Notes under the pieces: model-generated
Seen by the model: only the letters and a program-made list of their open reading frames with translations
Databases searched by the model: none
Told to the model about the DNA's origin: nothing
Virus record (IMG/VR): IMGVR_UViG_3300031760_000053
Strand: one strand, 5' to 3'
Source of the DNA: an uncultured virus (IMG/VR IMGVR_UViG_3300031760_000053)
Taxonomy: Duplodnaviria > Heunggongvirae > Uroviricota > Caudoviricetes
DNA length: 64,000 bases
Part shown: one piece after another, positions 5,592 through 39,994 of the stretch
How the letters are laid out: each line of letters begins with the position of its first letter
How positions within the stretch are numbered: position 1 is the first letter of the stretch
Position numbers and translations under genes: made by a program

Positions 5592-6082
5592 TTGCTACAT
5601 CCAAAAGGTTCGTTATCTATAGGAAGCCCAGCCTTATCTCTAGCTGCCCTCCATATCCAATAATCTTGTTCATCGTATATATCATACTTAGGGTCATACC
5701 TTTCATCCCAAGAATCTTCTACATATAAACTACTAGTGCCGCCTGTTGTTTCTATCTTTACCCAATGCTTTTCTACAAAAACTTGAGCATAGATATGATT
5801 CAACACATACGGACCTGTGTAACTCCAAGATGGATTAGGATTCCTGTTTACCACAAGACGAACTGTATCCTTCCCATAACGAGATACCCAAAGGTTATAA
5901 AATATAATTGCGTTGTCTATGCACGTAATTCTGCCATCGCCATTTATATCCTTTTCCATTGCCAAAGCGTCGTTCAAGAGATTATAAACTTTATAAAACT
6001 CTTCCCTAGATTTTATGGCTTCAATTCCAAAAAGAAAAGAACATTCCAATATCAACGCAAAAAACAATACAAACTTCTTCAT
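5588..6082 (-). CDS. exported protein, possible transglutaminase/papain-like fold
   Basis: start moved to MKKFVLFF (GGAGG RBS); signal peptide; CIDNA...NHIYAQV...WVKIE Cys-His-acid pattern. Confidence 0.55.
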   Translation of the reverse strand: MKKFVLFFALILECSFLFGIEAIKSREEFYKVYNLLNDALAMEKDINGDGRITCIDNAIIFYNLWVSRYGKDTVRLVVNRNPNPSWSYTGPYVLNHIYAQVFVEKHWVKIETTGGTSSLYVEDSWDERYDPKYDIYDEQDYWIWRAARDKAGLPIDNEPFGCSK

Positions 6083-22657: not shown

Positions 22658-23272
22658 CTATCCCCATATATTCCAGTGGTCTTTGGAAGAATATCCATCT
22701 TGTACATCAGCTAGCTGTACAAAAGTTTTCTCACTAAGTATGCTGAAGAAGACATTGTAAGCTCCTTCCATAACATTAAAATAATAGTTAACGTTACGAC
22801 GAGGATTGGGTATCAAGCTAGTGTAGCTCTCGTTCGTACCGAGCTTACCTACCATTTCCATCAGCAGCTTTGCATTACGGCTAACACTCTTCTCAGTTGT
22901 ATTGTAATCATAAGTTACAACTTTCCTCTTGATGTCATACCAGAACCGTTCATTCGTCAGAGTAGGATTAGTGAAACGAATACAGTCAGCTGTACAGAAT
23001 ATAGCCATATCTCTGGTGTCAAACAACGCAAGAGGATAAGACTGGAACTTCTGCGGTTTGCTATAGTAGTCTAGAACGTGAGTGATTTTTCTGTACATCT
23101 CACGCCCACATTTCTTACTTGCCTTCATAAGCGGCAAGTAACTATTGCGATACGTTGCTCTGAGTACTGCATCTCGTTCATTGCCTTTCGGCATAACAGC
23201 TGCCACCTGAGCTGAAGCCTTCATAATAATCTCCAGCTGTTTCTGTTGTTTATGATTTAGAAGATAAACCAT
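22658..23272 (-). CDS. hypothetical early protein
   Basis: 204-aa ORF, GGAGG RBS. Confidence 0.65.
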   Translation of the reverse strand: MVYLLNHKQQKQLEIIMKASAQVAAVMPKGNERDAVLRATYRNSYLPLMKASKKCGREMYRKITHVLDYYSKPQKFQSYPLALFDTRDMAIFCTADCIRFTNPTLTNERFWYDIKRKVVTYDYNTTEKSVSRNAKLLMEMVGKLGTNESYTSLIPNPRRNVNYYFNVMEGAYNVFFSILSEKTFVQLADVQDGYSSKDHWNIWG

Positions 23273-23283
23273 ATACCCTCCGT

Positions 23284-23317
23284 AGCAACAGGGCTAGATA
23301 TTACTAGCTCTGTTGCT
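23284..23317. repeat. CTAG-apex intergenic hairpin 1
   Basis: agcaacagggCTAG-atatta-CTAGctctgttgct. Confidence 0.8.
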
Positions 23318-23322
23318 CTGTT

Positions 23323-23610
23323 TTATTTTGCAAGTTCTGTCAAGAAAAATATCAAAGACCTAGCTCTAGGCTCTTTGATTGTTTCCCAAGGCAACTTCTT
23401 GACATACACATTACCCAAGACCTTTACAGCTTCACGAGCTGCTTCTACTGTTACATAGCAGATGTCATTTTTCAGACACGTTGAGTATGAAAACTCATAC
23501 TTTCCATTCTCGTTCCGCTTCTTGAACTCCAAGTAAAGCCTATAGCAATTCGGCATTACTTTTCTCTGAACCAGATACACAGCTCTGTATTCTTCCTTCC
23601 GTAACAACAT
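23323..23610 (-). CDS. hypothetical early protein
   Basis: ORF, AAGGAGG RBS. Confidence 0.6.
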   Translation of the reverse strand: MLLRKEEYRAVYLVQRKVMPNCYRLYLEFKKRNENGKYEFSYSTCLKNDICYVTVEAAREAVKVLGNVYVKKLPWETIKEPRARSLIFFLTELAK

Positions 23611-23612
23611 AG

Positions 23613-24059
23613 TTATACCTCCTTTGTAATTTTGAAGCCAAGCGTTCTCATCTCATCTATCTGAGTGTCAGTCCACACGCCTTCACCTTCTTTGTAATCC
23701 AAGTCAGCACACGTCTTGCGTGTGCTGACTAATGCTTCCTGAGCCGCTTCGTTATGTAACGTAACGGTTGTACCTAAGTTCTTATGTTCAAACCGTATAG
23801 CTTTAGCAACCAACCTTGCAATACTCTCTTGCTCTTCTGCTGTACCCTTGATGTACACCTCCTCATCATAAGTTACTTCTCCTACCAAAGTAACAACCTT
23901 TACCACAATAGCATAGTAGCCATCACCACCTACAGTCCGTTCCTGAACCTGTAAATAGTGATAATGACCAGCCCACAATCCAAGTGGAAAATCCCTTGAC
24001 CGCTTTTTAATCACGGTAATAATCTCTTCCATAGAAATCTCCTTGGTATCTAGTACCAT
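23613..24059 (-). CDS. hypothetical early protein
   Basis: ORF between hairpins; start may be MEEII (AAGGAG). Confidence 0.6.
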   Translation of the reverse strand: MVLDTKEISMEEIITVIKKRSRDFPLGLWAGHYHYLQVQERTVGGDGYYAIVVKVVTLVGEVTYDEEVYIKGTAEEQESIARLVAKAIRFEHKNLGTTVTLHNEAAQEALVSTRKTCADLDYKEGEGVWTDTQIDEMRTLGFKITKEV

Positions 24060-24062
24060 TCA

Positions 24063-24087
24063 AGTAGCCTAGATGTACTAGGCTACT
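24063..24087. repeat. CTAG-apex hairpin 2
   Basis: agtagcCTAG-atgta-CTAGgctact. Confidence 0.85.
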
Positions 24088-24095
24088 CAAGAGTA

Positions 24096-24350
24096 TTAGA
24101 TTCTCTTAAAGATTGCTGCAAGTCCCTCTGCTATAGGGTTATCCTTGTAGCTGAACTCTGCAAGTTGCTTGTCTGCTTCACAGTAGATGTGAAGTACACG
24201 CTCACCTTTCTCATTAAGTACATCAAACTCCCAACCATAAGTTACTGGTCGATACTTTGTTGCCCATCCACTGCAATCAACTCCCTTGCTTTCAAGGTAG
24301 TTCTTACCTGACACGTAAAAATCAAGTTTCAATCTCTGTGCGATATTCAT
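24096..24350 (-). CDS. hypothetical early protein
   Basis: ORF, GGAGG RBS. Confidence 0.6.
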   Translation of the reverse strand: MNIAQRLKLDFYVSGKNYLESKGVDCSGWATKYRPVTYGWEFDVLNEKGERVLHIYCEADKQLAEFSYKDNPIAEGLAAIFKRI

Positions 24351-24682
24351 TACAGCACCTCCTGCTTATTGATAATTCTTATTGGCTTAATCTTCTTAGC
24401 CAATATCCATTCACCGCCCTGACTTTCGGGGCGGTCATAAGTTGTGAAGTCCTCGACCTCCAACTCAATCCAGACCCTCTGCTGTCCGCTTGCCAGCTGC
24501 TCCTTCAAGTGTGGAGCAACAGGCTTGAAGCAGCAGTGAAAGCCCTCACGAACTGCAAAGCCTTTAGTAGGATAGCAGCCAGCTATCATCTGCTTCCCGA
24601 ACTCAAAAGCCTGATGCTTATTGATGAATAAAGGATAGCACTTGCCATCCTTACCAAGTCTTACTAGCTTGTACGCTTTCAT
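24350..24682 (-). CDS. conserved hypothetical phage protein
   Basis: AYKL...YPLFI...GFHC...APHL...QGGEW pattern; AAGGAG RBS. Confidence 0.7.
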   Translation of the reverse strand: MKAYKLVRLGKDGKCYPLFINKHQAFEFGKQMIAGCYPTKGFAVREGFHCCFKPVAPHLKEQLASGQQRVWIELEVEDFTTYDRPESQGGEWILAKKIKPIRIINKQEVL

Positions 24683-24719
24683 ATCAATCTCCTTAGTAGC
24701 CTAGATATACTAGGCTACT
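24683..24719. repeat. CTAG-apex hairpin 3 with conserved RBS block
   Basis: atcaatctcctt-agtagcCTAG-atata-CTAGgctact. Confidence 0.85.
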
Positions 24720-24729
24720 TATATTCTCT

Positions 24730-25107
24730 CTACAATAACTGCTTGAGGTCTTTCGCAGTTATTGGTTTGACTTTCTCTACATTAAAGTAGATGTCCATAC
24801 AGTAGAGCTTTATCTCTCCACGCTTCCACAACTCTAGTTGAGTGTCACTGGGCTGCGTGTAAGCATCATCTACTAATGTAGATACAAGAAACTGAACAGC
24901 CTCTCCGTCTTGATAAGCTGTTATTTTCACATCATCCTTGTCCATATAGAACCCATCAGCGATAAGAGCCTTGAGTTCTTCCTGAGTTTCAAAGGTCTTC
25001 CTGTAAAGGTTACTAGGAAACTCCTGTGTAGAAATATCCATAGAGCAACCTTTCTCATAGTCGTCTTCTGAAACATCAACAAAACCATTGCTTATTCTAT
25101 AAGCCAT
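24730..25107 (-). CDS. acidic early protein, distant paralogue of 26417..26815
   Basis: shared YE.G, FET.E.L and W....LY motifs. Confidence 0.7.
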   Translation of the reverse strand: MAYRISNGFVDVSEDDYEKGCSMDISTQEFPSNLYRKTFETQEELKALIADGFYMDKDDVKITAYQDGEAVQFLVSTLVDDAYTQPSDTQLELWKRGEIKLYCMDIYFNVEKVKPITAKDLKQLL

Positions 25108-25178
25108 ATCAATCTCCTTGGGTTAGTTAACCCACACGCTACACTAGAGATGACTAGTGTAGCAATGCGTTAGCTAAC
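25108..25178. repeat. CTAG-apex composite element 4 (attC-like geometry)
   Basis: - strand GTTAGCTAAC-GCATT-GCTACACTAG-tcatct-CTAGTGTAGC-GTGTGG-GTTAACTAAC-CC-AAGGAG. Confidence 0.85.
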
Positions 25179-25497
25179 GCCTGAACTCTTCTGCCTTCAA
25201 CGTGTTGAACAAATCAAACACACTGTAGACACCTTCTTGAAGGACTGCTAAATTATAAGTCCCTTTAGCAACCTCCATATCAACCTTTAGGTCTATGAGC
25301 TTTTCCATCTTTACATACTCACACCCTGCAATAACGCTGCTAGGATATGTCGAGCAGCACAGCTCTCTGCCGTCTTTCTCAAACCATATCTTCTCTCCTT
25401 TTCTGCAGAGAGCTGCTGCCACTATGCCTTTGAACATATAACCCGTGTAGTTTTCTTCCCACGGGTTCATCTTAAACGGATTTATTCTATAAGCCAT
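25174..25497 (-). CDS. hypothetical early protein
   Basis: AAGGAG RBS; begins MAYRI like its neighbour. Confidence 0.65.
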   Translation of the reverse strand: MAYRINPFKMNPWEENYTGYMFKGIVAAALCRKGEKIWFEKDGRELCCSTYPSSVIAGCEYVKMEKLIDLKVDMEVAKGTYNLAVLQEGVYSVFDLFNTLKAEEFRR

Positions 25498-25534
25498 ATC
25501 AATCTCCTTAGTAGCCTAGTATATCTAGGCTACT
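25498..25534. repeat. CTAG-apex hairpin 5 with RBS block
   Basis: atcaatctcctt-agtagcCTAG-tatat-CTAGgctact. Confidence 0.85.
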
Positions 25535-25549
25535 TAATAGTAATATCAC

Positions 25550-25822
25550 TCAACTGAGAATTGCCTTTGCGAATTCCTCGTCGAACTCTTCGTCATCTTC
25601 GTCCTCGTTTTTAATACCAAGACTGTCATAGATATCATCTCTCCCAAACCATAAGAGGTCGTTAATGTCTTGCAGCCTTGGTGTTTCACCAGCGTAATAG
25701 TCTGTAACGAATGACTCCCATTCATCAAGCTTGCCTTCTGCTTTGATGCGCTCCATAGTGCTAACAGCACCTTGCCAAAAATTGTTGACATCTGTTACGT
25801 CAACATCATTACGTACTTCCAT
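25550..25822 (-). CDS. acidic conserved phage protein
   Basis: FWQGA...INDLLWF...IYDSLGI pattern; strongly acidic. Confidence 0.7.
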   Translation of the reverse strand: MEVRNDVDVTDVNNFWQGAVSTMERIKAEGKLDEWESFVTDYYAGETPRLQDINDLLWFGRDDIYDSLGIKNEDEDDEEFDEEFAKAILS

Positions 25823-25892
25823 ATCAATCTCCTTGGGTTATCTAACCCACACGGCACGCTAGTTATCTAGTGTGCCAATGTGTTAGACAACT
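25823..25892. repeat. CTAG-apex composite element 6 (attC-like)
   Basis: - strand GTCTAAC-ACATT-GGCACACTAG-ataa-CTAGCGTGCC-GTGTGG-GTTAGAT. Confidence 0.85.
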
Positions 25893-25916
25893 ACTTGTTG
25901 TCTTTCTCTTCAAGAG

Positions 25917-26114
25917 TTACTTAATTAAATACTCAAATCTAGCACCAAAGCACCAGTAAATTTTGCTCTTCGGAATACTTACAACGTCGTACGCTTTCTC
26001 AGGAATGGAGAGTCTTTCCGCCTCTTTTTTAGTGAACAGTTCATTCCTTATAAGAAAGCGGTCGTCCTTTATTCTTTTCTGGTCGAACTCTGGTTTAACC
26101 TTACAATAAATCAT
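25917..26114 (-). CDS. conserved small phage protein
   Basis: VKPEFDQ...NELFT..E...YWCFGARF; GAGGAG RBS. Confidence 0.65.
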   Translation of the reverse strand: MIYCKVKPEFDQKRIKDDRFLIRNELFTKKEAERLSIPEKAYDVVSIPKSKIYWCFGARFEYLIK

Positions 26115-26119
26115 ACGTG

Positions 26120-26407
26120 TTACTCCTCGTCGTCGTTGTCTTTCTCTTCAAGCAAGCCCAACTCTTCAAGCCTGCTATCTGAAATCAAACCCTTGTCCAA
26201 GTCCTGCAGCACCGCATCCATTATGAAGTTCTCTTCAGCAGCCTGTTCAAGTGATTGCAATCCTGTTCGACAATCCAAGATTTTATAGAGCCATTTTTCA
26301 TCTCTACCGTTGATTTGTTCTACAAGAGTAAGCTCGTCCTCTGTGCAAACATCGTTGTCCAGTAAAAATATCTCGAATCTATCAATAAACATAGTTCCGT
26401 ACTCCAT
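26120..26407 (-). CDS. acidic conserved phage protein
   Basis: TEDELTLV..ING...RTG..SLEQ pattern; AGGAGG RBS. Confidence 0.7.
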   Translation of the reverse strand: MEYGTMFIDRFEIFLLDNDVCTEDELTLVEQINGRDEKWLYKILDCRTGLQSLEQAAEENFIMDAVLQDLDKGLISDSRLEELGLLEEKDNDDEE

Positions 26408-26416
26408 AGTAACCTC

Positions 26417-26815
26417 CTACCAAATCTCAACGCCCTGTTCTGCGAGGGCTTTTAACTCATCATCAGTAACATCTTTAAGAACGATGTCAACTCTGCGTGA
26501 GTAGAGTTCCTGTTTGTCTTCCTGCCAAGCAGCTTTCTCTTCGGCTGTCGCTGCTCGGAAGGTAGTGCCATTACCTTCACGAGCCACGATGTCCTCAGCA
26601 CTCAGAGTGAAATCGTCGCCCCAATCCTCACCTATCCAGTGAGATTCCGACCAATCAATCGGGCAAGTAACGAACTTGCTTACAAGTTCATTGAGCTGCT
26701 CGACTGTTTCAAAGCTCGACTTGCCAAGAGCAAGAGTCTGGAAAGCGACCCACTTCTGTGTTCCTTCCTCGTATTTTTCGAGGTAGAATTCCTCAGTAGC
26801 TTCTTTGACTACCAT
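26417..26815 (-). CDS. acidic early protein
   Basis: AAGGAG RBS; E/D-rich. Confidence 0.7.
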   Translation of the reverse strand: MVVKEATEEFYLEKYEEGTQKWVAFQTLALGKSSFETVEQLNELVSKFVTCPIDWSESHWIGEDWGDDFTLSAEDIVAREGNGTTFRAATAEEKAAWQEDKQELYSRRVDIVLKDVTDDELKALAEQGVEIW

Positions 26816-26886
26816 AGTAATCTCCTTGGGTTAACCAACCCACACGGTGCACTAGCATACCTAGTGTACCAATGTGTTAGTCAACT
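26816..26886. repeat. CTAG-apex composite element 7
   Basis: - strand GTTGACTAAC-ACATT-GGTACACTAG-gtatg-CTAGTGCACC-GTGTGG-GTTGGTTAAC. Confidence 0.85.
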
Positions 26887-26888
26887 TG

Positions 26889-27287
26889 CTAGAACCAACA
26901 GACTACCTTACCTACTGTTGACCAGTAGAAATCTACGACCTCTTGCAAGTCGTAGGTATATGTATACCTACCGTACTTAAATAGGCAATCATCGGTCTGC
27001 TCATCGTACGTAATACCGAGAGCATTGATAGTGAACTGTAATATCTCTGCATCGGAAAACATAAAGCCATACATATCGATGGCATAAAAGCCTAACCCTA
27101 CTGCCCAGTCCTCACAGACGGCAGGTGTTAAGTTGCTCACACCCTTTTGAGTGCGAACTTTGTCACGAACCTCTGCCATTGTTTTACCGTGCTCTGTAAC
27201 GAGTCCAACTACATAAGCCTTAATAGCCTTAGCAACCTGATTGCGACGTGCAATAGTCATCAATCTTCTAGGTCTAATGTTAACCAT
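26889..27287 (-). CDS. hypothetical early protein
   Basis: start moved to MVNIRP after the AAGGAGATTGAT block. Confidence 0.65.
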   Translation of the reverse strand: MVNIRPRRLMTIARRNQVAKAIKAYVVGLVTEHGKTMAEVRDKVRTQKGVSNLTPAVCEDWAVGLGFYAIDMYGFMFSDAEILQFTINALGITYDEQTDDCLFKYGRYTYTYDLQEVVDFYWSTVGKVVCWF

Positions 27288-27358
27288 ATCAATCTCCTTG
27301 GGTTGTCTAACCCACACGCTACACTAGGTAACTAGTGTAGCAATGTGTTAGACAACTA
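27288..27358. repeat. CTAG-apex composite element 8 (best attC-like copy)
   Basis: - strand GTCTAAC-ACATT-GCTACACTAG-ttac-CTAGTGTAGC-GTGTGG-GTTAGAC (RYYYAAC...GTTRRRY). Confidence 0.85.
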
Positions 27359-27359
27359 A

Positions 27360-27701
27360 CTACTCATCAGCTATCTGTAGTTCAAAGCCTGTCAGACTCT
27401 CAAACTTATCCTTTTGCTCCTCGGTGTATTCTCCTGAATAGTACACCTCTGAGCAAAGGCAATTAGGTCTGATGTCTGTCTTGTCTATGTCTAACCCTGC
27501 GACATAGATAGCTGTTTCAATGCAGTAGCTCCAAAGGAACTCACCGTTGAGTTCAATCCTATTCTCAAGGTCAGCGGCGTAATCGCGTACCAATTCTTTC
27601 CACGCTGTAGAAAGAATGTTGCTGTCCATACCTGCAAACATTGCCTTAGCATCATCTGTTGATACCTGCAAAAGAACTGTTGCCAACTTATCCATATCCA
27701 T
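27360..27701 (-). CDS. acidic hypothetical protein
   Basis: AGGAGG RBS. Confidence 0.65.
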   Translation of the reverse strand: MDMDKLATVLLQVSTDDAKAMFAGMDSNILSTAWKELVRDYAADLENRIELNGEFLWSYCIETAIYVAGLDIDKTDIRPNCLCSEVYYSGEYTEEQKDKFESLTGFELQIADE

Positions 27702-27738
27702 AGTAGTACCTCCTAGTACTATAAAAAATATATATTCT

Positions 27739-27759
27739 AGCAGGGCTTTAAGCCCTGCT
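27739..27759. promoter_or_regulatory. GC-rich hairpin, similar to the one at 19579-19596
   Basis: agcagggct-tta-agccctgct versus gcagggc-tttc-gccctgc. Confidence 0.55.
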
Positions 27760-27766
27760 TACCTAC

Positions 27767-28345
27767 CTAAAACTCATTGAACAAAACCTTTATGTATCGC
27801 ATCAACGAAAAAGGTTTGTCTACAGGAACTTTAACCTGCTTATAGTTACCCTCAAGCCACGGCTCTCCGTTTATGATACGGAATTTCACGGCATAAGGTA
27901 ACAATCTACAAGCTGATTGCATACGGAGCATTGTACTCCAAGTTAAGTACTCGCTGTGTAAGATACAAGTAACATCTTTTACTTCACCATCGAAGAAGTT
28001 ATCAAAGCTGACTCCAAACAAATACGAGTCGTAGTACATAGCATCTACCCCGTGTCCGAAGCTACTTGATAGCCAAGTGTTCCTATCTACATAGTAGTAG
28101 CTGTTGACAGTACCTCTTGCTTTAACCTTCAAGAGTTCATACCGCATCCTACTAGCAAGAGTTCTTGTAATCTTTCTACTCTCGTGGAAAGACATCGTTT
28201 TCTTTTGTCTTACTAGACAATAGAAACTCTCCTTTGAAGTTCCCTTTAGATACTCTGTGTACTCTTTAGCAGAGTTCTCTGTTGAGAACGAAGCTTTAGT
28301 AACCTCGCTCTCTCTTATGCCTATCGCAACATAATACTGTTTCAT
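27767..28345 (-). CDS. hypothetical early protein
   Basis: AGGAGG RBS. Confidence 0.65.
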   Translation of the reverse strand: MKQYYVAIGIRESEVTKASFSTENSAKEYTEYLKGTSKESFYCLVRQKKTMSFHESRKITRTLASRMRYELLKVKARGTVNSYYYVDRNTWLSSSFGHGVDAMYYDSYLFGVSFDNFFDGEVKDVTCILHSEYLTWSTMLRMQSACRLLPYAVKFRIINGEPWLEGNYKQVKVPVDKPFSLMRYIKVLFNEF

Positions 28346-28364
28346 TCCAGTACCTCCTAGTACT

Positions 28365-28808
28365 TTATTTTACGAACTCTTTTACAAGTCCGTCTTTTGA
28401 AAATCCATAAGAGATGTATACAATCTCTTTGCCTTTGTCCTGTTTCCAGAGGGCAACCCCTCCGTCGTATAGGTTTCCGTCGTGTCCTTCCCAAGCCTGT
28501 CGCTTAGTAATAACCCACAACGTTTCACTACTAGTATGGAGTTCGTCTTCAACAAACTCTATACTGCCGTCGTCAACTATACTATCATTGTCTACGATAG
28601 TATGCCCGTCTTCGTCTACTGGATACACTGTGAAGCACAGCTCTCCATAGTGGTCGAATACATTGATGTCAAACTCTTTGTCGCCATCAACATAGCCAAG
28701 CCACTCATCATCGATGTTGAGTGGAAGCTCTCCCACTTCAACCAAATCCCTCTTGCCGATTGCGGCAAGTACCTTGTAGCAGTTCGCTTCTTTCTTTAGA
28801 AAGACCAT
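28365..28808 (-). CDS. acidic hypothetical protein
   Basis: AAGGAG RBS. Confidence 0.65.
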   Translation of the reverse strand: MVFLKKEANCYKVLAAIGKRDLVEVGELPLNIDDEWLGYVDGDKEFDINVFDHYGELCFTVYPVDEDGHTIVDNDSIVDDGSIEFVEDELHTSSETLWVITKRQAWEGHDGNLYDGGVALWKQDKGKEIVYISYGFSKDGLVKEFVK

Positions 28809-28820
28809 AGCTTTGCTCCT

Positions 28821-28880
28821 TTAGTTACTTGAGTAACTATTCAACAGCCCTAGATTACTAGGACTGTCAAGGGTTACTAA
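28821..28880. repeat. CTAG-apex composite element 9
   Basis: tagttact-tg-agtaacta small hairpin; acagccCTAG-atta-CTAGgactgt; outer agtaac/gttact. Confidence 0.75.
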
Positions 28881-28882
28881 AG

Positions 28883-29290
28883 TTACTTTGTAATCTCTTC
28901 AACCTCATACTCTTTGCTTGTTTCAAAGAACCTGTCGCACTTTGAGAGTGCTTTTTTGTAGCACTCTTCATTATCTGGCTCTCCCAGATAATCATAAAAG
29001 TTATTGTCTATCAAGATACCTACTAGCATCTTATAGTAGGCTCTGGCTTCAAAGCCGAAGTCAAACACCCTTATAGTGTTGTCAGCTGACTGAGGGGCAA
29101 CCACAATCTGTTTCAGGTTGCTATCAAAGTACATAGCGACATAGAAGTTGTCGTGGTCGTCATCGTGAGTCCCACTCCACTCACTAACGAGCTTCTTTGT
29201 GAGTGGAGTGCCGTTGTTCTCCATTGCGTACGTGTCGCTTCCATAACGTGCGTTGTATTCGCACCCTTCCATTACTCCGAAGTGTAACAT
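28883..29290 (-). CDS. hypothetical early protein
   Basis: AAGGAG RBS. Confidence 0.65.
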   Translation of the reverse strand: MLHFGVMEGCEYNARYGSDTYAMENNGTPLTKKLVSEWSGTHDDDHDNFYVAMYFDSNLKQIVVAPQSADNTIRVFDFGFEARAYYKMLVGILIDNNFYDYLGEPDNEECYKKALSKCDRFFETSKEYEVEEITK

Positions 29291-29302
29291 CTTAAACTCC
29301 TT

Positions 29303-29360
29303 GTTGCTCTAGCAACTATTCAAGCACACTAGAATTACTAGTGTGCTTGAGGGGTACTAG
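29303..29360. repeat. CTAG-apex composite element 10
   Basis: gttgct-ct-agcaac; tcaagcacaCTAG-aatta-CTAGtgtgcttga. Confidence 0.8.
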
Positions 29361-29491
29361 AACCCTGCTACGTCTACTGACGTTGCGTCGTAGTCGTAGA
29401 TGTTAATTGAGTAGCCGTGAATACCTGCCACGGCTGCAGCCACTAGCAAAACACTAAGAATTATTCCTAGCACAGCTATGCTTTTTGTCAT
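29357..29491 (-). CDS. small TM peptide
   Basis: MTKSIAVLGIILSVLLVAAAVAG; GGAGG upstream. Confidence 0.45.
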   Translation of the reverse strand: MTKSIAVLGIILSVLLVAAAVAGIHGYSINIYDYDATSVDVAGF

Positions 29492-29621
29492 ATCTCTTGC
29501 CCTCCCAAGCAAGCTGTATGTATAGGGAGTATGCTCGCTCCCTGTCGAGCTTTCTTTCAATAGCGTACGGTGTTAGTGCCGCACGCAATCTTTCACAAGC
29601 AATGTCTAACTCGCTCATCAT
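29454..29621 (-). CDS. small hypothetical protein
   Basis: MMSELD start after AAGGAGATTG. Confidence 0.55.
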   Translation of the reverse strand: MMSELDIACERLRAALTPYAIERKLDRERAYSLYIQLAWEGKRYDKKHSCARNNS

Positions 29622-29631
29622 CAATCTCCTT

Positions 29632-29697
29632 GCTGTTAACCAGCTATGCAAACAGTACTAGCACTAGGCTAGTACTGTTCACGGGCGGGTCAACTAG
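29632..29697. repeat. CTAG-apex composite element 11
   Basis: aacagtaCTAG-cactagg-CTAGtactgtt with gctg/cagc small hairpin. Confidence 0.75.
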
Positions 29698-30023
29698 ATG
29701 TCGTATACACACTCAGGGTTTCTTATGTCTACCCTAAGCCACTTTAACTGGAAGCCCTCTGGAAGTGTCTTCGCTCCCTCAGGCAAGCGTCCACCAATCA
29801 ACTGGCACACAAAGAGTGTATCACCGTAGTTGAGAGAGACTGTCTCTCTGTTGAAGGGGAAGCCAGCTACATTAGCAGTGTCCTGATGTCCGATGATACT
29901 CTTAGCACCATTCTCAAACGCCTTGCGAGCGTCGTCCTCTGAGCAAGGAACTGTACGAACATCGGCAACGAAGTCGCATCCTACTAGCATCTGTAAACTA
30001 AAACCATTTGTGATGTACTCCAT
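29694..30023 (-). CDS. DUF1874 / STIV B116-like protein, candidate AcrIII-1 ring nuclease
   Basis: YITNGFSLQML, SIIGHQDTA (GH motif), FNRETVSL.YGD, QL.GGRLPEG match the DUF1874 pattern. Confidence 0.75.
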   Translation of the reverse strand: MEYITNGFSLQMLVGCDFVADVRTVPCSEDDARKAFENGAKSIIGHQDTANVAGFPFNRETVSLNYGDTLFVCQLIGGRLPEGAKTLPEGFQLKWLRVDIRNPECVYDI

Positions 30024-30058
30024 AGTTGTAGCGGGGATACTGACCTCCCCGCAAGGTC
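30024..30058 (-). promoter_or_regulatory. H-type pseudoknot in RBS position (copy D)
   Basis: GACC-UU-GCGGGGA-GGUC-AGUA-UCCCCGC-UACAACU-AUG. Confidence 0.65.
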
Positions 30059-30077
30059 TTAAAGTTTTTTTTGTAGT

Positions 30078-30137
30078 TGGGTTAACAACCCATTCAAGTA
30101 GCCTAGTATTTCTAGGCTACTTGAATGGGTTGTTAAC
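30078..30137. repeat. CTAG-apex element 12, perfect 26-bp stem
   Basis: gttaacaacccattcaagtagcCTAG-tattt-CTAGgctacttgaatgggttgttaac. Confidence 0.9.
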
Positions 30138-30451
30138 TAGAGGCGTTTCGCTGCTGCTATAGCAACCTCGTACGCCTCTTCGTTGCTTATAGGTTCGTCC
30201 TCTGAAAGTTCCTCAAGAACATCGCTTATCTTTTTACAAAAGACTATCGCCTCTGCCTTGTCTTCAAAAGCAATAGCCTTTTCCATACTTTCTGACGCTA
30301 CTACATAGCAACCGCTGTCCACGTCTTTAACGACTCCGACATAAAGGTCGTCGTCTGGAAAAGCACTGAATGAAGTCATTTCACAATATGTTATGACTTC
30401 GTTGTTAATATTAGCAAGAACTACACAGCCTTCAATTTCTAATTCTTTCAT
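30137..30451 (-). CDS. acidic hypothetical early protein
   Basis: 104-aa ORF; no SD at normal spacing. Confidence 0.65.
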   Translation of the reverse strand: MKELEIEGCVVLANINNEVITYCEMTSFSAFPDDDLYVGVVKDVDSGCYVVASESMEKAIAFEDKAEAIVFCKKISDVLEELSEDEPISNEEAYEVAIAAAKRL

Positions 30452-30487
30452 ACAAGTAGCGGGGATACTGACCTCCCCCGTAAGGTC
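30452..30487 (-). promoter_or_regulatory. H-type pseudoknot in RBS position (copy C)
   Basis: GACC-UUACGGGGGA-GGUC-AGUA-UCCCCG-CUACUUGU-AUG. Confidence 0.6.
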
Positions 30488-30501
30488 TAAAAAATGTTGT
30501 T

Positions 30502-30560
30502 TTGGATTAGCAATCCATCTAGTAGCACTAGAATTCTAATGCTACTAGGAGAGTGCTAAG
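30502..30560. repeat. degenerate CTAG-apex element 13
   Basis: tggatt/aatcca small hairpin; ctagtagca-CTAG-aatt-CTAA-tgctactag. Confidence 0.65.
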
Positions 30561-30962
30561 CTACTCTTCGTCTAGTGGTGTGTTAAAGCACCACCACAGG
30601 AAGTTCTCTCTCCACTCGTCATACGAGCGAGGGAAGCCGTCCATTCTCAAGACGGCTAAAAAGTGGTTTTGCTCTCGGAGCTTGTCGAGTTTTGCGAGGC
30701 ACTCGTACACTCTGTATCGAGCAACCTCCCAATCCATATCAGCACACCACCAATGCGCCTGAGCAGCTGCTCTCTTAATGTTCCTACTAGAACCATAGTA
30801 GGCTCTAGCATCGAGGTACTGCTCCTTATACTCTCTTGCAAGGCGGTTAGCTTCTCTTACGAGAAGCTGAACCTCGTCTTGAGGGTTTAAGCCGATAACG
30901 TCCTGCCCCATAAGAGTAATGCCGTCAGCTATCAATTCAAAATCAACATCAAACTTTGCCAT
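30561..30962 (-). CDS. hypothetical early protein
   Basis: 133-aa ORF. Confidence 0.65.
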   Translation of the reverse strand: MAKFDVDFELIADGITLMGQDVIGLNPQDEVQLLVREANRLAREYKEQYLDARAYYGSSRNIKRAAAQAHWWCADMDWEVARYRVYECLAKLDKLREQNHFLAVLRMDGFPRSYDEWRENFLWWCFNTPLDEE

Positions 30963-30993
30963 AGTAGTCGCTCGCTTAACCGCCAGCTAGGTC
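30963..30993 (-). promoter_or_regulatory. H-type pseudoknot in RBS position (copy B)
   Basis: GACC-UAGCUGGC-GGUU-AA-GCGAGC-GACUACU-AUG. Confidence 0.6.
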
Positions 30994-31003
30994 TGTAAAA
31001 TTA

Positions 31004-31060
31004 TGGGTTTAACTAACCCACTCGGCACACTAGCCCTACTAGTGTGCCAATGTGTTAGCT
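31004..31060. repeat. CTAG-apex composite element 14
   Basis: - strand AGCTAAC-ACATT-GGCACACTAG-taggg-CTAGTGTGCC-GAGTGG-GTTAGTT. Confidence 0.85.
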
Positions 31061-31730
31061 AAAAGAGCTTACTTATTGCCTGAGCATACTGCTCAGCGTT
31101 CAAGATTCCACTCTTGAACAGGTCTGTTAATACAGCCGCTCTGGCTGTATTGTCTACCTTAGGCTGTACGGGCTGTGGGGCAGGGGTTACCTTTGGAGCA
31201 GGGGTGTATACAGGCTGTGGCTGTGGCTGTGGCTGTGGCTGTGGCTGTGGAGCTGGCATACCGAAGCACATCGGTATCTCGCTAAATGTCGGCAAGCCAC
31301 CTTTAGCCTTTCTGAAGAGCTTACTTAGCTTTTCACAGAGTCGCTCCATATCAGTCCAAAGGTACTGACATTGAGGGCGGAAGCGTCCAAAACAGGTGTC
31401 CAATGTCGGTGCACCCATACGTCCCGACCCTCCCCACATCTCGATGGCTATAACAAGAGAGATTTGTGTAGTGTTGAGAAACTTTCTCAGCTCCTTGACA
31501 GAGCTATCTTCCTCGTGGCTAGTAAGCCACTCAAGAAGCCAGTGCCTGTTCTTCTTAGCCTCCTCAGGCGACACGTCCCCCTTGTACATAGCTAGGGCTG
31601 GTATAGCCCTCTTTGCTTTGTGGCAGTATGCCATAAAGGTGTCCCAGTTAACAGGCTTGATAGCCTGCTCTACAGCAGGCTTAGAAGTTGCCTTGCAACC
31701 AGCCGCAAGAATATCCTTTGTTATAAACAT
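31059..31730 (-). CDS. first early gene; PQ linker and C-terminal SHOCT-like domain
   Basis: (PQ)n linker; LTDLFKSGILNAEQYAQAISKL resembles SHOCT. Confidence 0.7.
   Translation of the reverse strand: MFITKDILAAGCKATSKPAVEQAIKPVNWDTFMAYCHKAKRAIPALAMYKGDVSPEEAKKNRHWLLEWLTSHEEDSSVKELRKFLNTTQISLVIAIEMWGGSGRMGAPTLDTCFGRFRPQCQYLWTDMERLCEKLSKLFRKAKGGLPTFSEIPMCFGMPAPQPQPQPQPQPQPVYTPAPKVTPAPQPVQPKVDNTARAAVLTDLFKSGILNAEQYAQAISKLF
31213..31248. repeat. (GGCTGT)6 in-frame microsatellite encoding PQ repeats
   Basis: six exact hexamer copies. Confidence 0.9.
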
Positions 31731-31763
31731 AATAGTAGCTCGCTACTAGCCGCCAGCTAGGCT
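31731..31763 (-). promoter_or_regulatory. H-type pseudoknot in RBS position (copy A)
   Basis: AGCC-UAGCUGGC-GGCU-AGUA-GCGAGCUA-CUAUU-AUG. Confidence 0.6.
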
Positions 31764-31783
31764 GAGAGATATAGTTGCCTACG

Positions 31784-31827
31784 CAACTAATCAAACCTTT
31801 AAGTAGTCTTAAAGGTTTGATTAGTTG
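31784..31827. repeat. perfect 20-bp hairpin in the early leader
   Basis: caactaatcaaacctttaag-tagt-cttaaaggtttgattagttg. Confidence 0.85.
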
Positions 31828-32632
31828 GGGTACTGTAACAAGAAGTACCCCCGCCCTACTAGTTGAGTTACCAACGAAAAAACCCTGCCCGATAGCCATC
31901 ACCCTACTAGTAGGATAAATCAGGTTTAGGTCTTTTTGACTGTAGGCGTCAAGTCAACTAGTTGACAGTAACAGGGGGCATAGGGCTTAACCTACACCAA
32001 AGTTAGAAGGTGTTAGTTACTATCAACAGCCATAAAATTATATCTCTGTTTTTCAGAGGGGCGGCTTTTGCTTGCGCTACTCACCGCTACTCAGCTTTTG
32101 GACTTACCCCCTTGATAGCTCTAGGGAACAGTATCCTAAGTCGGTAAATTGTCGCAAGGTTTGAAAAGGCTTTATTTCCATACGTCACCCTACTACTTAT
32201 CTGTAGCATCGGCTGTTGATTATCATCATCTAGTCTACATCAAGTATCACGCCCGCCTTATCGCGATTGTGCAAAAACTCAAGCTACTAGTAGCTTTTTG
32301 TTTACTCGGTTAACTATCTCTGTTTATAACCGCCGTGGGTTTATCGCTATGTACTTATAGCTTTTTCGCTCTAGCATTGCGCTTTTCTACTTGTTAACTT
32401 TTATCGCCTGTTAACAGGTCTATCGTCGCAATCCTTGCTAGTTCAAAAGCAACTCGTCAAGCTCGTCGCTTTATGGTTATAATATAAAGCATATACAGAA
32501 AAAAGTAAAATCCTAAGGTACATTTACACACTCACATAATTTTTTAACTAAAAACTTCAAAAAAAACCGAAAATCACGAAATCCTCGCACGTTGCTTTAT
32601 AGATAGCAACAATATCAGTAGCACCATAGGAG

Positions 32633-32812
32633 TTACTAAAATATTTTCTAAACTCGTACAAGTGCATTTTTTCAAAACGGCTTTGACCACTTCCCCCAAT
32701 ATATATGTATTTTTTATACTCTATGAGGGTATAAAATTTTTTGACGCTAGAAGTATAGGTTAAAAGGGTGTAAAAAAACTCATTTGGACGAGTTTAGAAA
32801 ATATTTTAGTAA
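32633..32812. repeat. 25-bp perfect inverted repeat around a 130-bp spacer containing the 16-bp core in reverse orientation
   Basis: arms 32633-32657 and 32788-32812; ttttgacgctagaagt at 32739-32754. Confidence 0.85.
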
Positions 32813-33031: not shown

Positions 33032-33060
33032 TTGACATATACATTTTTTTTCTATATAAT
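33032..33060 (+). promoter_or_regulatory. perfect-consensus sigma70 promoter for the packaging arm
   Basis: TTGACA (33032-33037), 17 bp, TATAAT (33055-33060). Confidence 0.85.
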
Positions 33061-33066
33061 AAAAGA

Positions 33067-33618
33067 ATGAACGTAATAAAGGTACTTTCGGACACAAAAG
33101 ATACGTTAAAGGTAGGGGAAATGACGGAGTTTCAAGGAAAATTGAAACACCGCAGCCCGAAACAGGTGGAATCGTTGGCAAATAGCTTGCTTACGGAAGG
33201 TTTGATTATGCCATTTGTGATATGGCGGCACGAAGGTAAGAACTTATTGCTTGATGGACACGGGCGATACAAGGCTATACAGTATTTAGCTGAGAAAAAC
33301 GGTGATGAAGCTGTCTTGCAACAGGACTTCCCTGTGCTATATATTGATGCTCAGACAGAGGAAGAAGCTAAAAAAGCCCTTTTACAGATTTCAAGTAGGT
33401 ACGGAAACGTTACGAGAAAAGGTGCAGCTGCATTTTGTGCTACGATACCGCAATACAAGGCTCCAGTGCTAAAACCTTTTTCGACAGACAGCAGTGCATC
33501 GAAAAAGTTTAAGGCAAAAGCGACGGACAGAACGTTGATAAAGATTTCTGTGCCGAACGATATAGCTGAGGAGATTAAAAAGATGCTTTCGGAAGTACCA
33601 TCTATAAGGATAGTGTAA
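33067..33618 (+). CDS. ParB/Srx N-terminal-domain protein
   Basis: SLLTEGLIMPFVIW...LLDGHGRYKA; next to terminase. Confidence 0.8.
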   Translation: MNVIKVLSDTKDTLKVGEMTEFQGKLKHRSPKQVESLANSLLTEGLIMPFVIWRHEGKNLLLDGHGRYKAIQYLAEKNGDEAVLQQDFPVLYIDAQTEEEAKKALLQISSRYGNVTRKGAAAFCATIPQYKAPVLKPFSTDSSASKKFKAKATDRTLIKISVPNDIAEEIKKMLSEVPSIRIV

Positions 33619-35594
33619 TGGGAAACATACTTGCGCCAACAGTGAATAAGACAGAAGCATTTGAAGAAGAGTTCAATACCACAGGAATGAAAAAGAACGA
33701 CAGTGGCGTTGAAAAAGAATCGCTAACGCAGTCTTTTAGGAAACTGCTTAATCTTCCTGCACAGGAAGATGAGATAAGGCGCAAGGACCAGAAACACATA
33801 GAACAAACGTTCTTATCGGTATATGAGATTGCGAGTAATGAAGGATTGACAGTTGCCGAGTGGGTGCAGAAAGACCCTACGACTGCTGTTGCTTATGCTG
33901 AAAACAGCGTAGCGTATTGGCAGAATATATTGACAACAGCAGCGATGACGGGTGCATTGGAAATCACCCTTGCTAATGGAGAAACGGCGAACAATCCTGT
34001 ATCAAAGAATCAAACAAAGCTGATTGAAGTAAAGATACGAGAGTGTCAGAAACAGTTGGACTTTGTAAATGAGTTGGCATTAACATCATACCGAGATGAT
34101 GAGCAGCGCAGAGATGCGTTGCAGCGTGTAATGTATAGGCGTGCTTTGAAGGGTGACACCCGAATGGCGATATACTTACACGATAGAACAGAAGGACGAC
34201 CGAGTGAGAGTAAAGTTGCGGAACTGGACTACGACTATACGTATGCTGTATGGGCGATATTGAAGACCTTGTTTGATAAGCAGCTTGAAGTGTTGAACTC
34301 TGGCTCTGGTGTACGTTTAGTATGTTGTTCCCGTCGAGCGGGAAAGACGCACTTGCTGACAGCAATAATGTTGATTGAGTGCTTACGTCGACCGAGAACT
34401 AAGGTTATGTACATTGGAGAAACAATGCTACAGTCCGAGAGTTTGGTAGACAAAGCAGCGAACGACATTATTGATGCAGCGCAGTTGCGTGACAAAAGAG
34501 GACGACGACTTGACTGGAAGCACTTGGACAATGGGTCTGAGATTATGATTCGAGGTCTTTCAAATACAAAAGACCCTGACCAGATTCGTGGACACAATGC
34601 TAAAGTCATTGTAATTGATGAGTTCTTCCATTTGAAAAGTGAATTGCTAGACTATATGCAGCAGCAGGTTTTGACACCTATGCAGATGGACTTTGCAGAC
34701 GATTATATGTTCATCTGTGCAGGAACGCCGCCGAGAATTAAGGGAACGTTCGGAGAGAAAGCATGGAACGAATGGAAAGTGCCTAAGTTCCATTGGACGT
34801 GGAAAGACAATCCGCATCCTGTAAATATGGAACAAAGGGCGGCATTTATTGAGCAGAAACTCAAGGAGCAAGGTTTGACGTGGGAAAGTTCGTTTGCACG
34901 TCGAGAATACTTAGGTGAGTTCTGCTATGACGAAGACTTGTTGCTATATCCTACCTATTATACATACGACCCAAGAGAAGCGTTACCGACCGTACAGCCG
35001 ACGAGAATTCTTTTTGGCATTGACTACGGTGTATCAGATAATGACTGTTTGATTGGCGTAGCGTGGAATGATGATGAGAATCGGGGTTATGTATTCTGCG
35101 AAGAGAAGTTCAACAGACTTGACGTACCGCAAGGTGTATCACAGCTTGAAATGCTGAGTGAAAAGATAGAACACGCTTGGTACGATGCTTTTGATTACTT
35201 CCCAGGACTTGACAAAAAAGAAGCAAATAAGAGAATATGGTTTGATGCTGATGACAATGACCAGCATTTGACAGATTACTTGAATATGAATGTACACGTT
35301 ACATACATAGATGAGCAGACACAAGAGAGAAGAAAGTTAAATCTTTCAATACAGAACGCACATAAGACAGACAAAGGCTTTATGTTCGACCGCTTGAACG
35401 ACCAATTTAGAACAAGCAACTTGCTTGTTATGAAAGGTAGTAAGCTAGAAACAGAGTTGAAATCTACAATCCGAAAGCGTGGTAGCAAGGGTGAAGTGTA
35501 CAACGAAGTTGATGATAGTGCATATCATCCAGATTTGTTACCTGCATTAAGATATGCTATGTGGAATGTAATCGGCGTTAAAGGAGTAAAGTAA
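33618..35594 (+). CDS. terL: terminase large subunit with TerS-like N-terminal extension
   Basis: SRRAGKT, VIVIDE, AGTP, REYLGEF, GIDYG, HPDLLPALRYA. Confidence 0.9.
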   Translation: MGNILAPTVNKTEAFEEEFNTTGMKKNDSGVEKESLTQSFRKLLNLPAQEDEIRRKDQKHIEQTFLSVYEIASNEGLTVAEWVQKDPTTAVAYAENSVAYWQNILTTAAMTGALEITLANGETANNPVSKNQTKLIEVKIRECQKQLDFVNELALTSYRDDEQRRDALQRVMYRRALKGDTRMAIYLHDRTEGRPSESKVAELDYDYTYAVWAILKTLFDKQLEVLNSGSGVRLVCCSRRAGKTHLLTAIMLIECLRRPRTKVMYIGETMLQSESLVDKAANDIIDAAQLRDKRGRRLDWKHLDNGSEIMIRGLSNTKDPDQIRGHNAKVIVIDEFFHLKSELLDYMQQQVLTPMQMDFADDYMFICAGTPPRIKGTFGEKAWNEWKVPKFHWTWKDNPHPVNMEQRAAFIEQKLKEQGLTWESSFARREYLGEFCYDEDLLLYPTYYTYDPREALPTVQPTRILFGIDYGVSDNDCLIGVAWNDDENRGYVFCEEKFNRLDVPQGVSQLEMLSEKIEHAWYDAFDYFPGLDKKEANKRIWFDADDNDQHLTDYLNMNVHVTYIDEQTQERRKLNLSIQNAHKTDKGFMFDRLNDQFRTSNLLVMKGSKLETELKSTIRKRGSKGEVYNEVDDSAYHPDLLPALRYAMWNVIGVKGVK

Positions 35595-38338: not shown

Positions 38339-39994
38339 ATGAGTACGATACAGTGGGAAAAAGATGTAACAGGTATGGCAGTGCCGACATTGTATCCAGG
38401 CGAAAAGAGTGACAACTGGGAAATCCCTAACAGCGTGTCTGACGAGTACCATAGGTTAAACGGTATTATAGAGAGTAAGTACAGTAAAGAGTTCTTAAAA
38501 ATCTGCGCTTTCTATAATAAGATGTTTCCATCTTTAAGAACAACAACGAGTCAGACTCCGTACAACTCTATTGCTTTTACAGTAAAAGACCAAGAGAGAA
38601 CTGATACAGGAGCAGGTACTAACTATAACTACTTAAAAGCTATAGTAGACCAGATTACATCACGATTAGGAACAATTCTTTTCCAACCAATGTTGACAAG
38701 TGAAGACCCGAACTATGAGTATGTGATATACAAAGATACTGTAGAGAGGGTTTTGAGAACATTTATTCGAGATGATAACTTCAATCGCATTTGTTTGGAG
38801 AGTTTTCACAACGCAGCTATCTTAGGATACTCACACGTATTCATAGACCCGTATACAGGAAGGCTAGTAAAAGCACCTGATTACACAATAGGCTTTTTTG
38901 AAAGCCAATTTAACCATAATAACATCACACAAATGCTGTATAGAGATTATTCTTTCCCTGTTACAGAGGTAGGATACTACTTAACAGAGTGTGATGACAA
39001 GCAAAAAACCGAAGTAATGGAATCTATACTAGGTAGAGATAGCGTAGATTTCAAGATGTACTTCGATTGTATAGCTCAAGAGGTGTATGTAACCATAGGA
39101 AGTAAGACTTTACCAGCGAAAAAGTACCCTTTTGACAAGGTTTTGATGGCTACTTTTCAATGGGATACGGGCTTTAATCGCACTCATACAACGTCAGAAT
39201 TTGACAAATTATACCCAATTCAGAGGGAAATTAACAAGATTGCAGCCAAAATCCAGCAGTTTGTAAGGCTTTATAAAGGTCCTGTACCTGTTTTTAACAG
39301 CGATATAGACCTAGTTGTAAAGCAATTAAGCAATGGAAGTGGCGAAGTATTGGTTGTAGACAGTGGTAGACCTGTAGATTCTTTAATGACTGTCATAAAT
39401 CCTACTCCATTGGACAGTCAGTTGGACGCACAGATACAGGCGTACAAGACAACGATGTTTGAATTGAGTGGAATCCAGAACAGTTCATTCGATATGGAGC
39501 AGATGCGAAGTGCGAGTGCTGTCATTGCTCTTGACCAGATGCGTGATAGCGTATTCCAAGCACAGATGAGTGCAATGAGCCAGTTCATAAAGGACGCTTT
39601 GCATTTGTACATACAGTTCTATGCAGAGTTTCCTGACTTTAGTCCAGCAGCAGCAGTTGTTGACTGGAGGACTGTAAACAATCTGATGAAGAACAGTTAC
39701 ATAGACTTGAAGCCAGTACACTTAAACGACTTTACATCGGATACGAACACAATCGACACAAAGCCGAGTGACTACATAGAAATGATGTCATCGCAATTCT
39801 TGTTGAAATTGTTGAACAACAAGGCAACTTATGATACAATACCTTATTATCTTGACCCTGCGCTTGTAACAAAGAAGGTTGCAGAAACTTTAGCGAAGTT
39901 TGCAGCGTTAGGACTTGAGATTCCGATGAGCATACATAAGTATCTGATAAGAGCGTATCTGGAAGAGATTGCTGCAGGACAAGGAGAGTTGTAA
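38339..39994 (+). CDS. putative portal protein
   Basis: 551 aa near terminase; NYLKAIVDQITSRL, PIQREINK, ELSGI...SASAVIAL portal-like segments. Confidence 0.7.
   Translation: MSTIQWEKDVTGMAVPTLYPGEKSDNWEIPNSVSDEYHRLNGIIESKYSKEFLKICAFYNKMFPSLRTTTSQTPYNSIAFTVKDQERTDTGAGTNYNYLKAIVDQITSRLGTILFQPMLTSEDPNYEYVIYKDTVERVLRTFIRDDNFNRICLESFHNAAILGYSHVFIDPYTGRLVKAPDYTIGFFESQFNHNNITQMLYRDYSFPVTEVGYYLTECDDKQKTEVMESILGRDSVDFKMYFDCIAQEVYVTIGSKTLPAKKYPFDKVLMATFQWDTGFNRTHTTSEFDKLYPIQREINKIAAKIQQFVRLYKGPVPVFNSDIDLVVKQLSNGSGEVLVVDSGRPVDSLMTVINPTPLDSQLDAQIQAYKTTMFELSGIQNSSFDMEQMRSASAVIALDQMRDSVFQAQMSAMSQFIKDALHLYIQFYAEFPDFSPAAAVVDWRTVNNLMKNSYIDLKPVHLNDFTSDTNTIDTKPSDYIEMMSSQFLLKLLNNKATYDTIPYYLDPALVTKKVAETLAKFAALGLEIPMSIHKYLIRAYLEEIAAGQGEL

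Follow-up and report, generated by a model that had tools for sequence, protein, structure and literature searches.

Four compact pseudoknots at the head of the small-gene arm

The stretch of DNA analysed here is a 64,000-nucleotide record of an uncultured Caudoviricetes virus (IMG/VR IMGVR_UViG_3300031760_000053; hereafter the window), which represents a near-complete tailed phage genome with TerL, portal and PolA among its genes. The plus-strand arm carries TerL (33618–35594) together with a ParB-like gene and portal, and the minus-strand arm contains PolA, primase and helicase and begins with a run of small genes, of which genes A to D come first. The 'early' status of this small-gene arm is inferred from the genome layout. 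Gene A (31059–31730; 223 aa, with a Pro/Gln-rich linker), gene B (30561–30962; 133 aa) and gene C (30137–30451; 104 aa) have no assigned function, and gene D (29694–30023; 109 aa) belongs to the DUF1874/STIV B116 family; all four lie on the minus strand. Directly before their AUG codons (open reading frames (ORFs) 31730, 30962, 30451 and 30023), the minus strand carries four elements, A to D, each arranged as an H-type pseudoknot. A sequence-only reading of this DNA had described these elements, and all four are present as it had written them, at the minus-strand positions given below.

In every element the parts follow one order: stem P1 (4 bp), loop L1 (2 nt), stem P2 (6–7 bp), the 3′ strand of P1, loop L3 (2–5 nt), the 3′ strand of P2 and a spacer of 7–8 nt that ends at the AUG, with 0 nt between the stems. 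Specifically, pseudoknot A with its 7-nt spacer (31731–31737) spans 31731–31763; P1 pairs 31760–31763 with 31748–31751, P2 pairs 31752–31757 with 31738–31743 and includes one G·G, and L1 and L3 cover 31758–31759 and 31744–31747, respectively. Pseudoknot B (30963–30993, 7-nt spacer) has a terminal G-U pair in P1, a 6-bp P2 with a G·G and an L3 of only 2 nt. Pseudoknot C (30452–30487, 8-nt spacer) has a G-C-rich P2 and fits the scheme with a 5-bp P1; a 4-bp P1 would require L1 = 3 and L2 = 1. Pseudoknot D (30024–30058, 7-nt spacer) has a perfect 7-bp P2. In both C and D a GGAGGU is buried within the fold (30471–30476 and 30043–30048). Elements C and D are 90% identical over 30 nt and A and B are likewise near-duplicates, so that the window alone amounts to two independent solutions.

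A descriptor of the structure alone recognised 21 pseudoknot-like sites in the window against 8–18 in each of six shuffles. Five of the 21 are followed by an ATG at 7–8 nt (A to D and one low-complexity repeat), against 0–1 per shuffle; the known copies had served to tune the descriptor, which makes this chance test post hoc.

Both stems are maintained by compensatory changes in related phages

Nine more distinct copies occur in relatives, which come from viral and metagenome contigs: three in L073, two each in L067 and L068, and one each in L064 and L065, the L065 copy being identical in L066. This gives 13 distinct copies, with the 99.7% identical L001 and duplicate contig records left out. 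Of the cells scored across them, 51 of 52 are paired in P1 and 78 of 83 in P2; all five unpaired P2 cells are one recurring G·G, at a place where other copies have G-U, A-U or G-C. Position 2 of P1 is A-U, G-C or C-G among the copies; at positions 3, 4, 6 and 7 of P2 both sides change and the pair type switches. These compensatory changes in both stems bear out the covariation that the sequence-only reading had described for P1, as well as its claim that P2 stays paired while its sequence changes: C and D, which have no CUAG, keep the fold.

Sub-alignments with few gaps, one of 6 and one of 5 of the 13 rows (B and C omitted, as their loop lengths differ), have 93.3% and 98.2% of their cells paired. 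Sliding the register lowers this to 62.5% at most, a control that is inflated by the relatedness of the copies. Since nine cells are G-U and none is A·C, the fold is specific to the mRNA strand. A few bases are invariant, namely C-G pairs at the stem junction, and the loops are little conserved. A third stem of the kissing-hairpin type between L3 and the spacer was looked for in the 13 copies and is not conserved. The P2 sequences fall into two main classes; in a cross-pairing matrix 11 of the 13 P2 strands are nearly interchangeable, and all copies descend from few ancestors.

The knots occupy the position of the Shine-Dalgarno sequence

The distance from P2 to the AUG is 7–8 nt in all 13 copies, though the lengths of L3 and P2 vary. 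The knot spacer resembles the spacer that follows Shine-Dalgarno sequences (SDs) in the same phage, with A at −6 and U at −1. We scored an SD as absent where pairing with the anti-SD in the zone from −16 to −4 is weaker than −4 kcal/mol, using an anti-SD 9-mer; the canonical anti-SD was located in one of five genomes searched from the putative, Treponema-related host family (see below). In this zone none of the 13 copies pairs better than −3.6 kcal/mol, and all 16 downstream genes of the window reach −7.8 kcal/mol or stronger, which confirms the SD use that the sequence-only reading had assigned to the genes further downstream. Its observation that the 3′ strand of P2 sits at the SD position without being an SD holds at normal spacing in 13 of 13 copies; what it overlooked is the buried GGAGGU of C and D. 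The remaining copies contain weaker G-rich matches (−4.8 to −9.3 kcal/mol) 13–16 nt from the AUG.

Among 81 early-arm starts listed by hand in seven genomes, 13 have the knot only and 68 an SD only; none has both and none has neither. All knots in this list are confined to slots 1–4 of the arm.

The 12 nt 5′ of the 13 knots, an unpaired linker, contain 77% A+U and 5% G, compared with 56% and 26% in the arm. In the window this linker is A/U-rich and G-poor before A (31764–31775, minus strand), where it is a candidate landing site for ribosomal protein bS1, A/U-rich before B (30994–31005) and C (30488–30506), and A-rich before D (30059–30080), all on the minus strand.

Knot and SD replace each other at orthologous genes

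Orthologues of the knot-led genes can be SD-led. Gene D has an SD in L067, L068 and the contigs of runs X2 and X3; in the latter two a 23-nt SD-bearing stretch replaces gene C and both knots. Because such SD-led orthologues exist, the knot is dispensable for gene D. Gene A, whose homologues begin at the identical Met, is SD-led in L063 and L064, the SD lying within a vestigial P1 hairpin, and runs X4 and X5 have deletions at the gene A knot site. In L063 (680–716) and L064 (near 5970–6003) the P1 hairpin is kept and the SD is in its loop. The SD form of gene A is consistent with deletion of L3 and the 3′ strand of P2 between short repeats. Conversely, L073 has a knot before a small gene of the MSEL(D) type for which the window and L063 use an SD. 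After one and the same type of upstream hairpin module, some genes have an SD immediately and others an A/U-rich linker and then a knot.

At window position 30965, a loose end in run X3, a contig links gene B with a pseudoknot of the L073 type; on these 30 letters, knot types would swap too before gene B. The knot precedes at least six different gene families, and in the sequences compared it tracks the slot, not the gene. The gene A tree does not resolve the branching of the window, L063 and L064, and its outgroups are knot-bearing; by parsimony, the knot may be the ancestral state at gene A.

The element was found in one close phage group only

We searched for the element in RNA families, viral contigs, host-family genomes and the literature. 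Rfam 15 gave no match in the window at the gathering threshold. A scan at E ≤ 10 gave sub-threshold matches only, mostly to long hairpins; those on D (traJ_5, E 2.7) and C (rli22, E 9.2) are at chance level. In four relatives a single miRNA-type hairpin was matched. No Rfam family thus corresponds to the element, which the sequence-only reading had likewise not recognised as a described one. Among viral contigs, a C/D-type pattern had no matches; two A/B-type patterns matched 41 and 6 stretches, with the full element only in those of the same phage group, and a third-type pattern matched one already known copy. A covariance model run on 54 sources (811,722 bases) returned the known copies only at 38 bits or more and then noise at about 16 bits, and the descriptor, applied to 71 loci (11,509 start contexts), gave only background beyond the close group. 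In distant relatives (TerL about 50–63%) the first genes mostly have ordinary SDs. Within the host family, 8 of 401 genomes contain the pattern; the phage contig accounts for three of the matches, and the nine others do not lie 7–8 nt before an ATG, with about 30 control matches, and in 601,825 host-family bases the descriptor has a flat distance profile.

The literature searched, cited here and below from the available text of each source and with most subscription papers outside it, contained no comparable element (PMC5737381, PMC2864571, 10.64898/2026.09.22.753630 and PMC10931766 were among the sources). For the 2017 survey of 224 motifs (PMC5737381) this refers to the main text, most motifs being described in the supplement, which lay outside the comparison. 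The DUF1874 RNA motif of that survey resembles the present case in occupying consecutive intergenic regions, and gene D is itself of the DUF1874 family; by its description as multistem with a conserved internal loop (PMC5737381), and with no Rfam match here, the motif is set apart from the element. The pseudoknot is a real RNA element, undescribed in the literature searched.

A candidate initiation signal in place of the SD

We propose, at a probability of roughly 60%, that the linker and pseudoknot together form a positive initiation signal that recruits the 30S subunit through bS1 in place of an SD. The element would be a cis-acting mRNA signal doing the work of the SD at the head of the small-gene arm, for its first one to four genes. 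bS1 would capture the linker and pseudoknot and dock the mRNA on the 30S platform, and the fixed spacer, as after the SDs of this phage, would put the AUG in the P site. The knot might either remain folded at the position of the SD:anti-SD helix or be melted by bS1 after docking, with about even chances. The knot might be confined to the first slots because loading would then not depend on whether the anti-SD is available, or because it gives these genes a common handle by which to shut them off later. The 'SD-independent initiation element' of the sequence-only reading thereby gains comparative support from SD exclusion, the 7–8-nt spacing and the SDs gained at orthologues where the knot is absent.

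Its other suggestion, a ligand-controlled switch, appears weak, as melting of the knot would uncover no SD within working distance, and the loop bases are little conserved. Riboswitches of the preQ1-I and SAM-II type have a normally spaced SD that is hidden by the knot. An SD-occluding pseudoknot riboswitch was rejected, since in none of the 13 copies is anti-SD pairing stronger than −4 kcal/mol between −16 and −4.

To our knowledge, natural activating pseudoknots all retain an SD. In selections with 30S subunits, those containing S1 selected pseudoknots and those depleted of S1 selected SD RNAs (PMC3858243, PMC7708055). From these reports, and from the full-length bS1 encoded in five of five host-family genomes, we infer the capture by bS1 and the docking on the platform. 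The resemblance extends to architecture: the ligands of 30S and S1 obtained by the systematic evolution of ligands through exponential enrichment (SELEX), like the tisB standby site, combine an H-type knot with a single-stranded tract (PMC3858243, PMC7708055), and both act positively on initiation through S1 (PMC7708055). Unlike the present element, the tisB knot lies about 100 nt upstream and opens a sequestered ribosome-binding site (RBS) (PMC7708055); the SELEX ligands of Ringquist 1995 are artificial, and the likeness here is by description. A pseudoknot is also required for initiation in timP (PMC11228461) and in ColIb-P9 repZ/IncB repBA (PMC4705826), where in repZ its 3′ strand adjoins the initiation region. 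However, those pseudoknots are long-range, keep an existing SD open and are antisense RNA targets, whereas the present one is local, about 26 nt long and without an SD at working distance. An SD-access knot of the repZ, timP or tisB type was rejected, none of the 13 copies retaining an SD at that distance. The element reads as acting like these S1-binding, translation-promoting knots without the retained SD that defines them.

A stricter version of the proposal, that the folded knot docks in the 30S platform pocket of the SD:anti-SD helix and so sets the start without rRNA pairing, is tentative and would be clearly less probable than recruitment through bS1 as such.

Several points weigh against an initiation signal of this kind. 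Structure within the ribosome footprint usually inhibits initiation, and nested folding predicts the P2 hairpin alone in most copies. The GGAGGU of C and D, which spans the P2/P1 junction about 19 nt before the AUG, could pair with the anti-SD at −11.4 kcal/mol. Because 11 of the 13 P2 strands share one class, independent covariation events are only a handful, and the fixed distance between P2 and AUG could partly result from descent. The 81 starts were picked by eye, partly via their SDs; nine ORF starts omitted from the list comprise four with an SD and five, at overlapping, internal or in-hairpin ATGs, with neither signal. The host assignment, a hint, comes from binning alone. Finally, the pseudoknots of the IGR IRES, an internal ribosome entry site from an intergenic region, are dispensable in E. 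coli (PMC9458429), where the activity of this IRES, the best-known case claimed for recruitment by structure alone, was later ascribed to S1 and an SD-like element (PMC9458429).

Alternative explanations

The knot might instead be a translational operator or damper: initiation would be weak, from the A/U-rich context, and a phage or host protein would bind the knot to shut off or tune the earliest genes. We regard this as possible but doubtful. Confinement to the first slots fits a temporal shut-off, some bases never vary (C-G pairs where the stems join), and the scaffold is the CPK-1 one, common to the T2 gene 32 operator (PMC3835772). CPK-1 pseudoknots have a stem 2 of 6–7 bp, a loop 1 of 1–2 nt and directly stacked stems (PMC3835772, PMC3014915). 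Stem 2 has this length in 13 of 13 copies, five of them with one G·G; a loop 1 of 1–2 nt with 0 nt between the stems is found directly in 12 of 13, and in copy C if P1 is 5 bp. By this geometry, the element shares with the T2/T4 gene 32 operator, the founder of the class, a compact H-type scaffold in a phage mRNA leader. In gene 32, however, the knot nucleates repressor binding from a position about 67 nt upstream of the start, the RBS remaining intact, whereas here the knot is at the SD position before unrelated genes; the scaffold alone is in common. The genes behind the knot are unrelated to one another, which rules out autoregulation by their products, and an autogenous operator of the gene 32 type was rejected, with at least six gene families downstream and the SD position occupied. 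The E. coli rpsO operator (PMC3858243) offers a further parallel, its pseudoknot docking on the 30S platform with the assistance of S1, as may be the case here; but rpsO is an S15 operator that retains its SD, and its knot, which sequesters coding sequence, has to melt. Moreover, an SD is present wherever the knot is absent, as expected for the substitute of a positive signal rather than for an operator.

A buried or split SD is a good deal less likely. It would take the G-rich strand at the P2/P1 junction as the real SD, hidden by the knot and brought into range by a different fold with a shorter spacer, as in T4 genes 38 and 25. The GGAGGU of C and D and the weaker matches of the other copies would supply such an SD, the SD form of gene A retains P1 with its SD in and beside the loop, and copy A is able to form a spacer hairpin of −4.8 kcal/mol. 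The match, however, lies at a variable 13–19 nt from the AUG, and 7 of the 13 copies have only a weak one (−4.8 to −5.5 kcal/mol). T4 genes 38 and 25 (PMC3014915) also have structure between a distant SD-like sequence and the AUG, but in them the SD is set free by a hairpin that loops the spacer out, whereas the SD-like strand here takes part in both stems. We rejected a split RBS of this type, as the copies share no conserved hairpin in the spacer: the spacer fold is worth 0.0 kcal/mol in 7 of 13 copies (C and D included) and −1.9 kcal/mol or weaker in five others, hence −1.9 or weaker in 12 of 13. An in-frame AUC 5 nt past the buried SD of C and D was rejected as a general feature, because A and the first L073 copy have an upstream in-frame stop.

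An mRNA stability element is slightly less likely again. Each gene is preceded by a long, near-perfect hairpin, which might serve as an RNase III-like processing site, and the knot would shield the new 5′ end from exonucleolytic decay. Pseudoknots and bound ribosomes are both able to block 5′–3′ decay. This explanation accounts neither for the fixed distance to the AUG nor for the absence of SDs only at knots.

That the knot is a DNA-level or non-functional repeat, a by-product of CTAG-containing palindromic modules shuffled among genes, is very improbable: several P2 arms do carry the CUAG core of the intergenic palindromes and modules are copied from gene to gene, but the strand is fixed by G-U pairs, compensatory changes occur in both stems, C and D lost CUAG and kept the fold, and without the knot the genes would lack any initiation signal.

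Gene D, intergenic hairpins and genome context

Gene A has seven homologues. For gene D, the single sequence falls below the Pfam cut-off; its homologues all match PF08960 with G45-H46 invariant, and the gene D profile matches the solved members 2x4i, 6scf and 2j85 at E 2e-10 or better. With the invariant His46, gene D looks like a ring nuclease of the AcrIII-1 type, a family described in bioRxiv 10.1101/778746, and would thus be directed against type III CRISPR. A Cas10 of the type III-B/Cmr2 type exceeds the family cut-off in 3 of 151 putative host-family genomes. An anti-CRISPR gene behind a knot fits a need for immediate expression.

Long hairpins or inverted repeats, with up to 26 bp perfect, precede most arm genes over 23272–31830 (both strands) and belong to a few recurring module families, often with CTAG flanking the apex on either side. 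Specifically, a perfect 20-bp inverted repeat lies before gene A (31784–31827), a module of family D5 (77%) before B (31003–31050), a long hairpin before C (30507–30559) and a perfect 26-bp inverted repeat before D (30081–30137); the module at 26817–26880 is of the same family as that before B and ends in an SD. The arm hairpins may be sites of RNase III-type processing, or units that recombine to exchange cassettes. Arm gene content varies among close relatives.

Upstream of gene A, a leader of about 700 nt (31830–32520, minus strand) contains many hairpins and no conserved ORF; its sequence has diverged among relatives and has no Rfam match at threshold. A scan for a leftward sigma-70 promoter gave a best score of 9/12, with none convincing. 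A perfect 12/12 sigma-70 promoter is found at 33032–33060 (plus strand), directly 5′ of the ParB-like gene, and the transcript of this gene is probably leaderless, as its AUG lies within a few bases of the promoter and has no SD. Between the divergent arms, in an AT-rich gap near the GC-skew switch, 32633–32812 holds a 40-nt inverted repeat (90%) whose arms are 100 nt apart, possibly an origin or a genome end. The 2486-aa protein encoded in the virion region (39994–47454, plus strand) has no Pfam or PHROG match; its candidacy as a virion RNA polymerase was dropped, as a motif scan revealed no catalytic motif and no family matched. No tRNA genes were found in the window.

GenBank phages include no close relative of the window and gave a single weak TerL match. 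The only match among bacterial genomes is L073, a 9.4-kb contig with an 87% identical TerL, within a metagenome-assembled genome (MAG) labelled uncultured Treponema sp.; the same Treponema bin holds additional contigs of the L073 phage. By this binning, there is a hint of a Treponema-related host for the phage group. When 401 genomes were searched at the DNA level for links to a host, only the MAG's own phage contig was returned; this search scored few candidates and is weak for CRISPR spacers. Apart from the possible source, the two best-matching runs are labelled bovine gut metagenome.

Significance

The element bears on the question whether RNA structure alone recruits a bacterial ribosome and selects a start codon. 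For this question the 13 copies, together with natural knot-versus-SD pairs before nearly identical genes, provide a small, naturally varied test set. If the element works as inferred, it would be a new kind of bacterial ribosome-binding site and possibly an anti-SD-independent part for expression engineering. If the stricter version of the proposal is true, this would be a natural, structure-based bacterial initiation signal of about 26 nt, minimal and IRES-like, that is evolutionarily interchangeable with the SD, and the first genes of the phage, one of them an anti-CRISPR, would be translated independently of the anti-SD.

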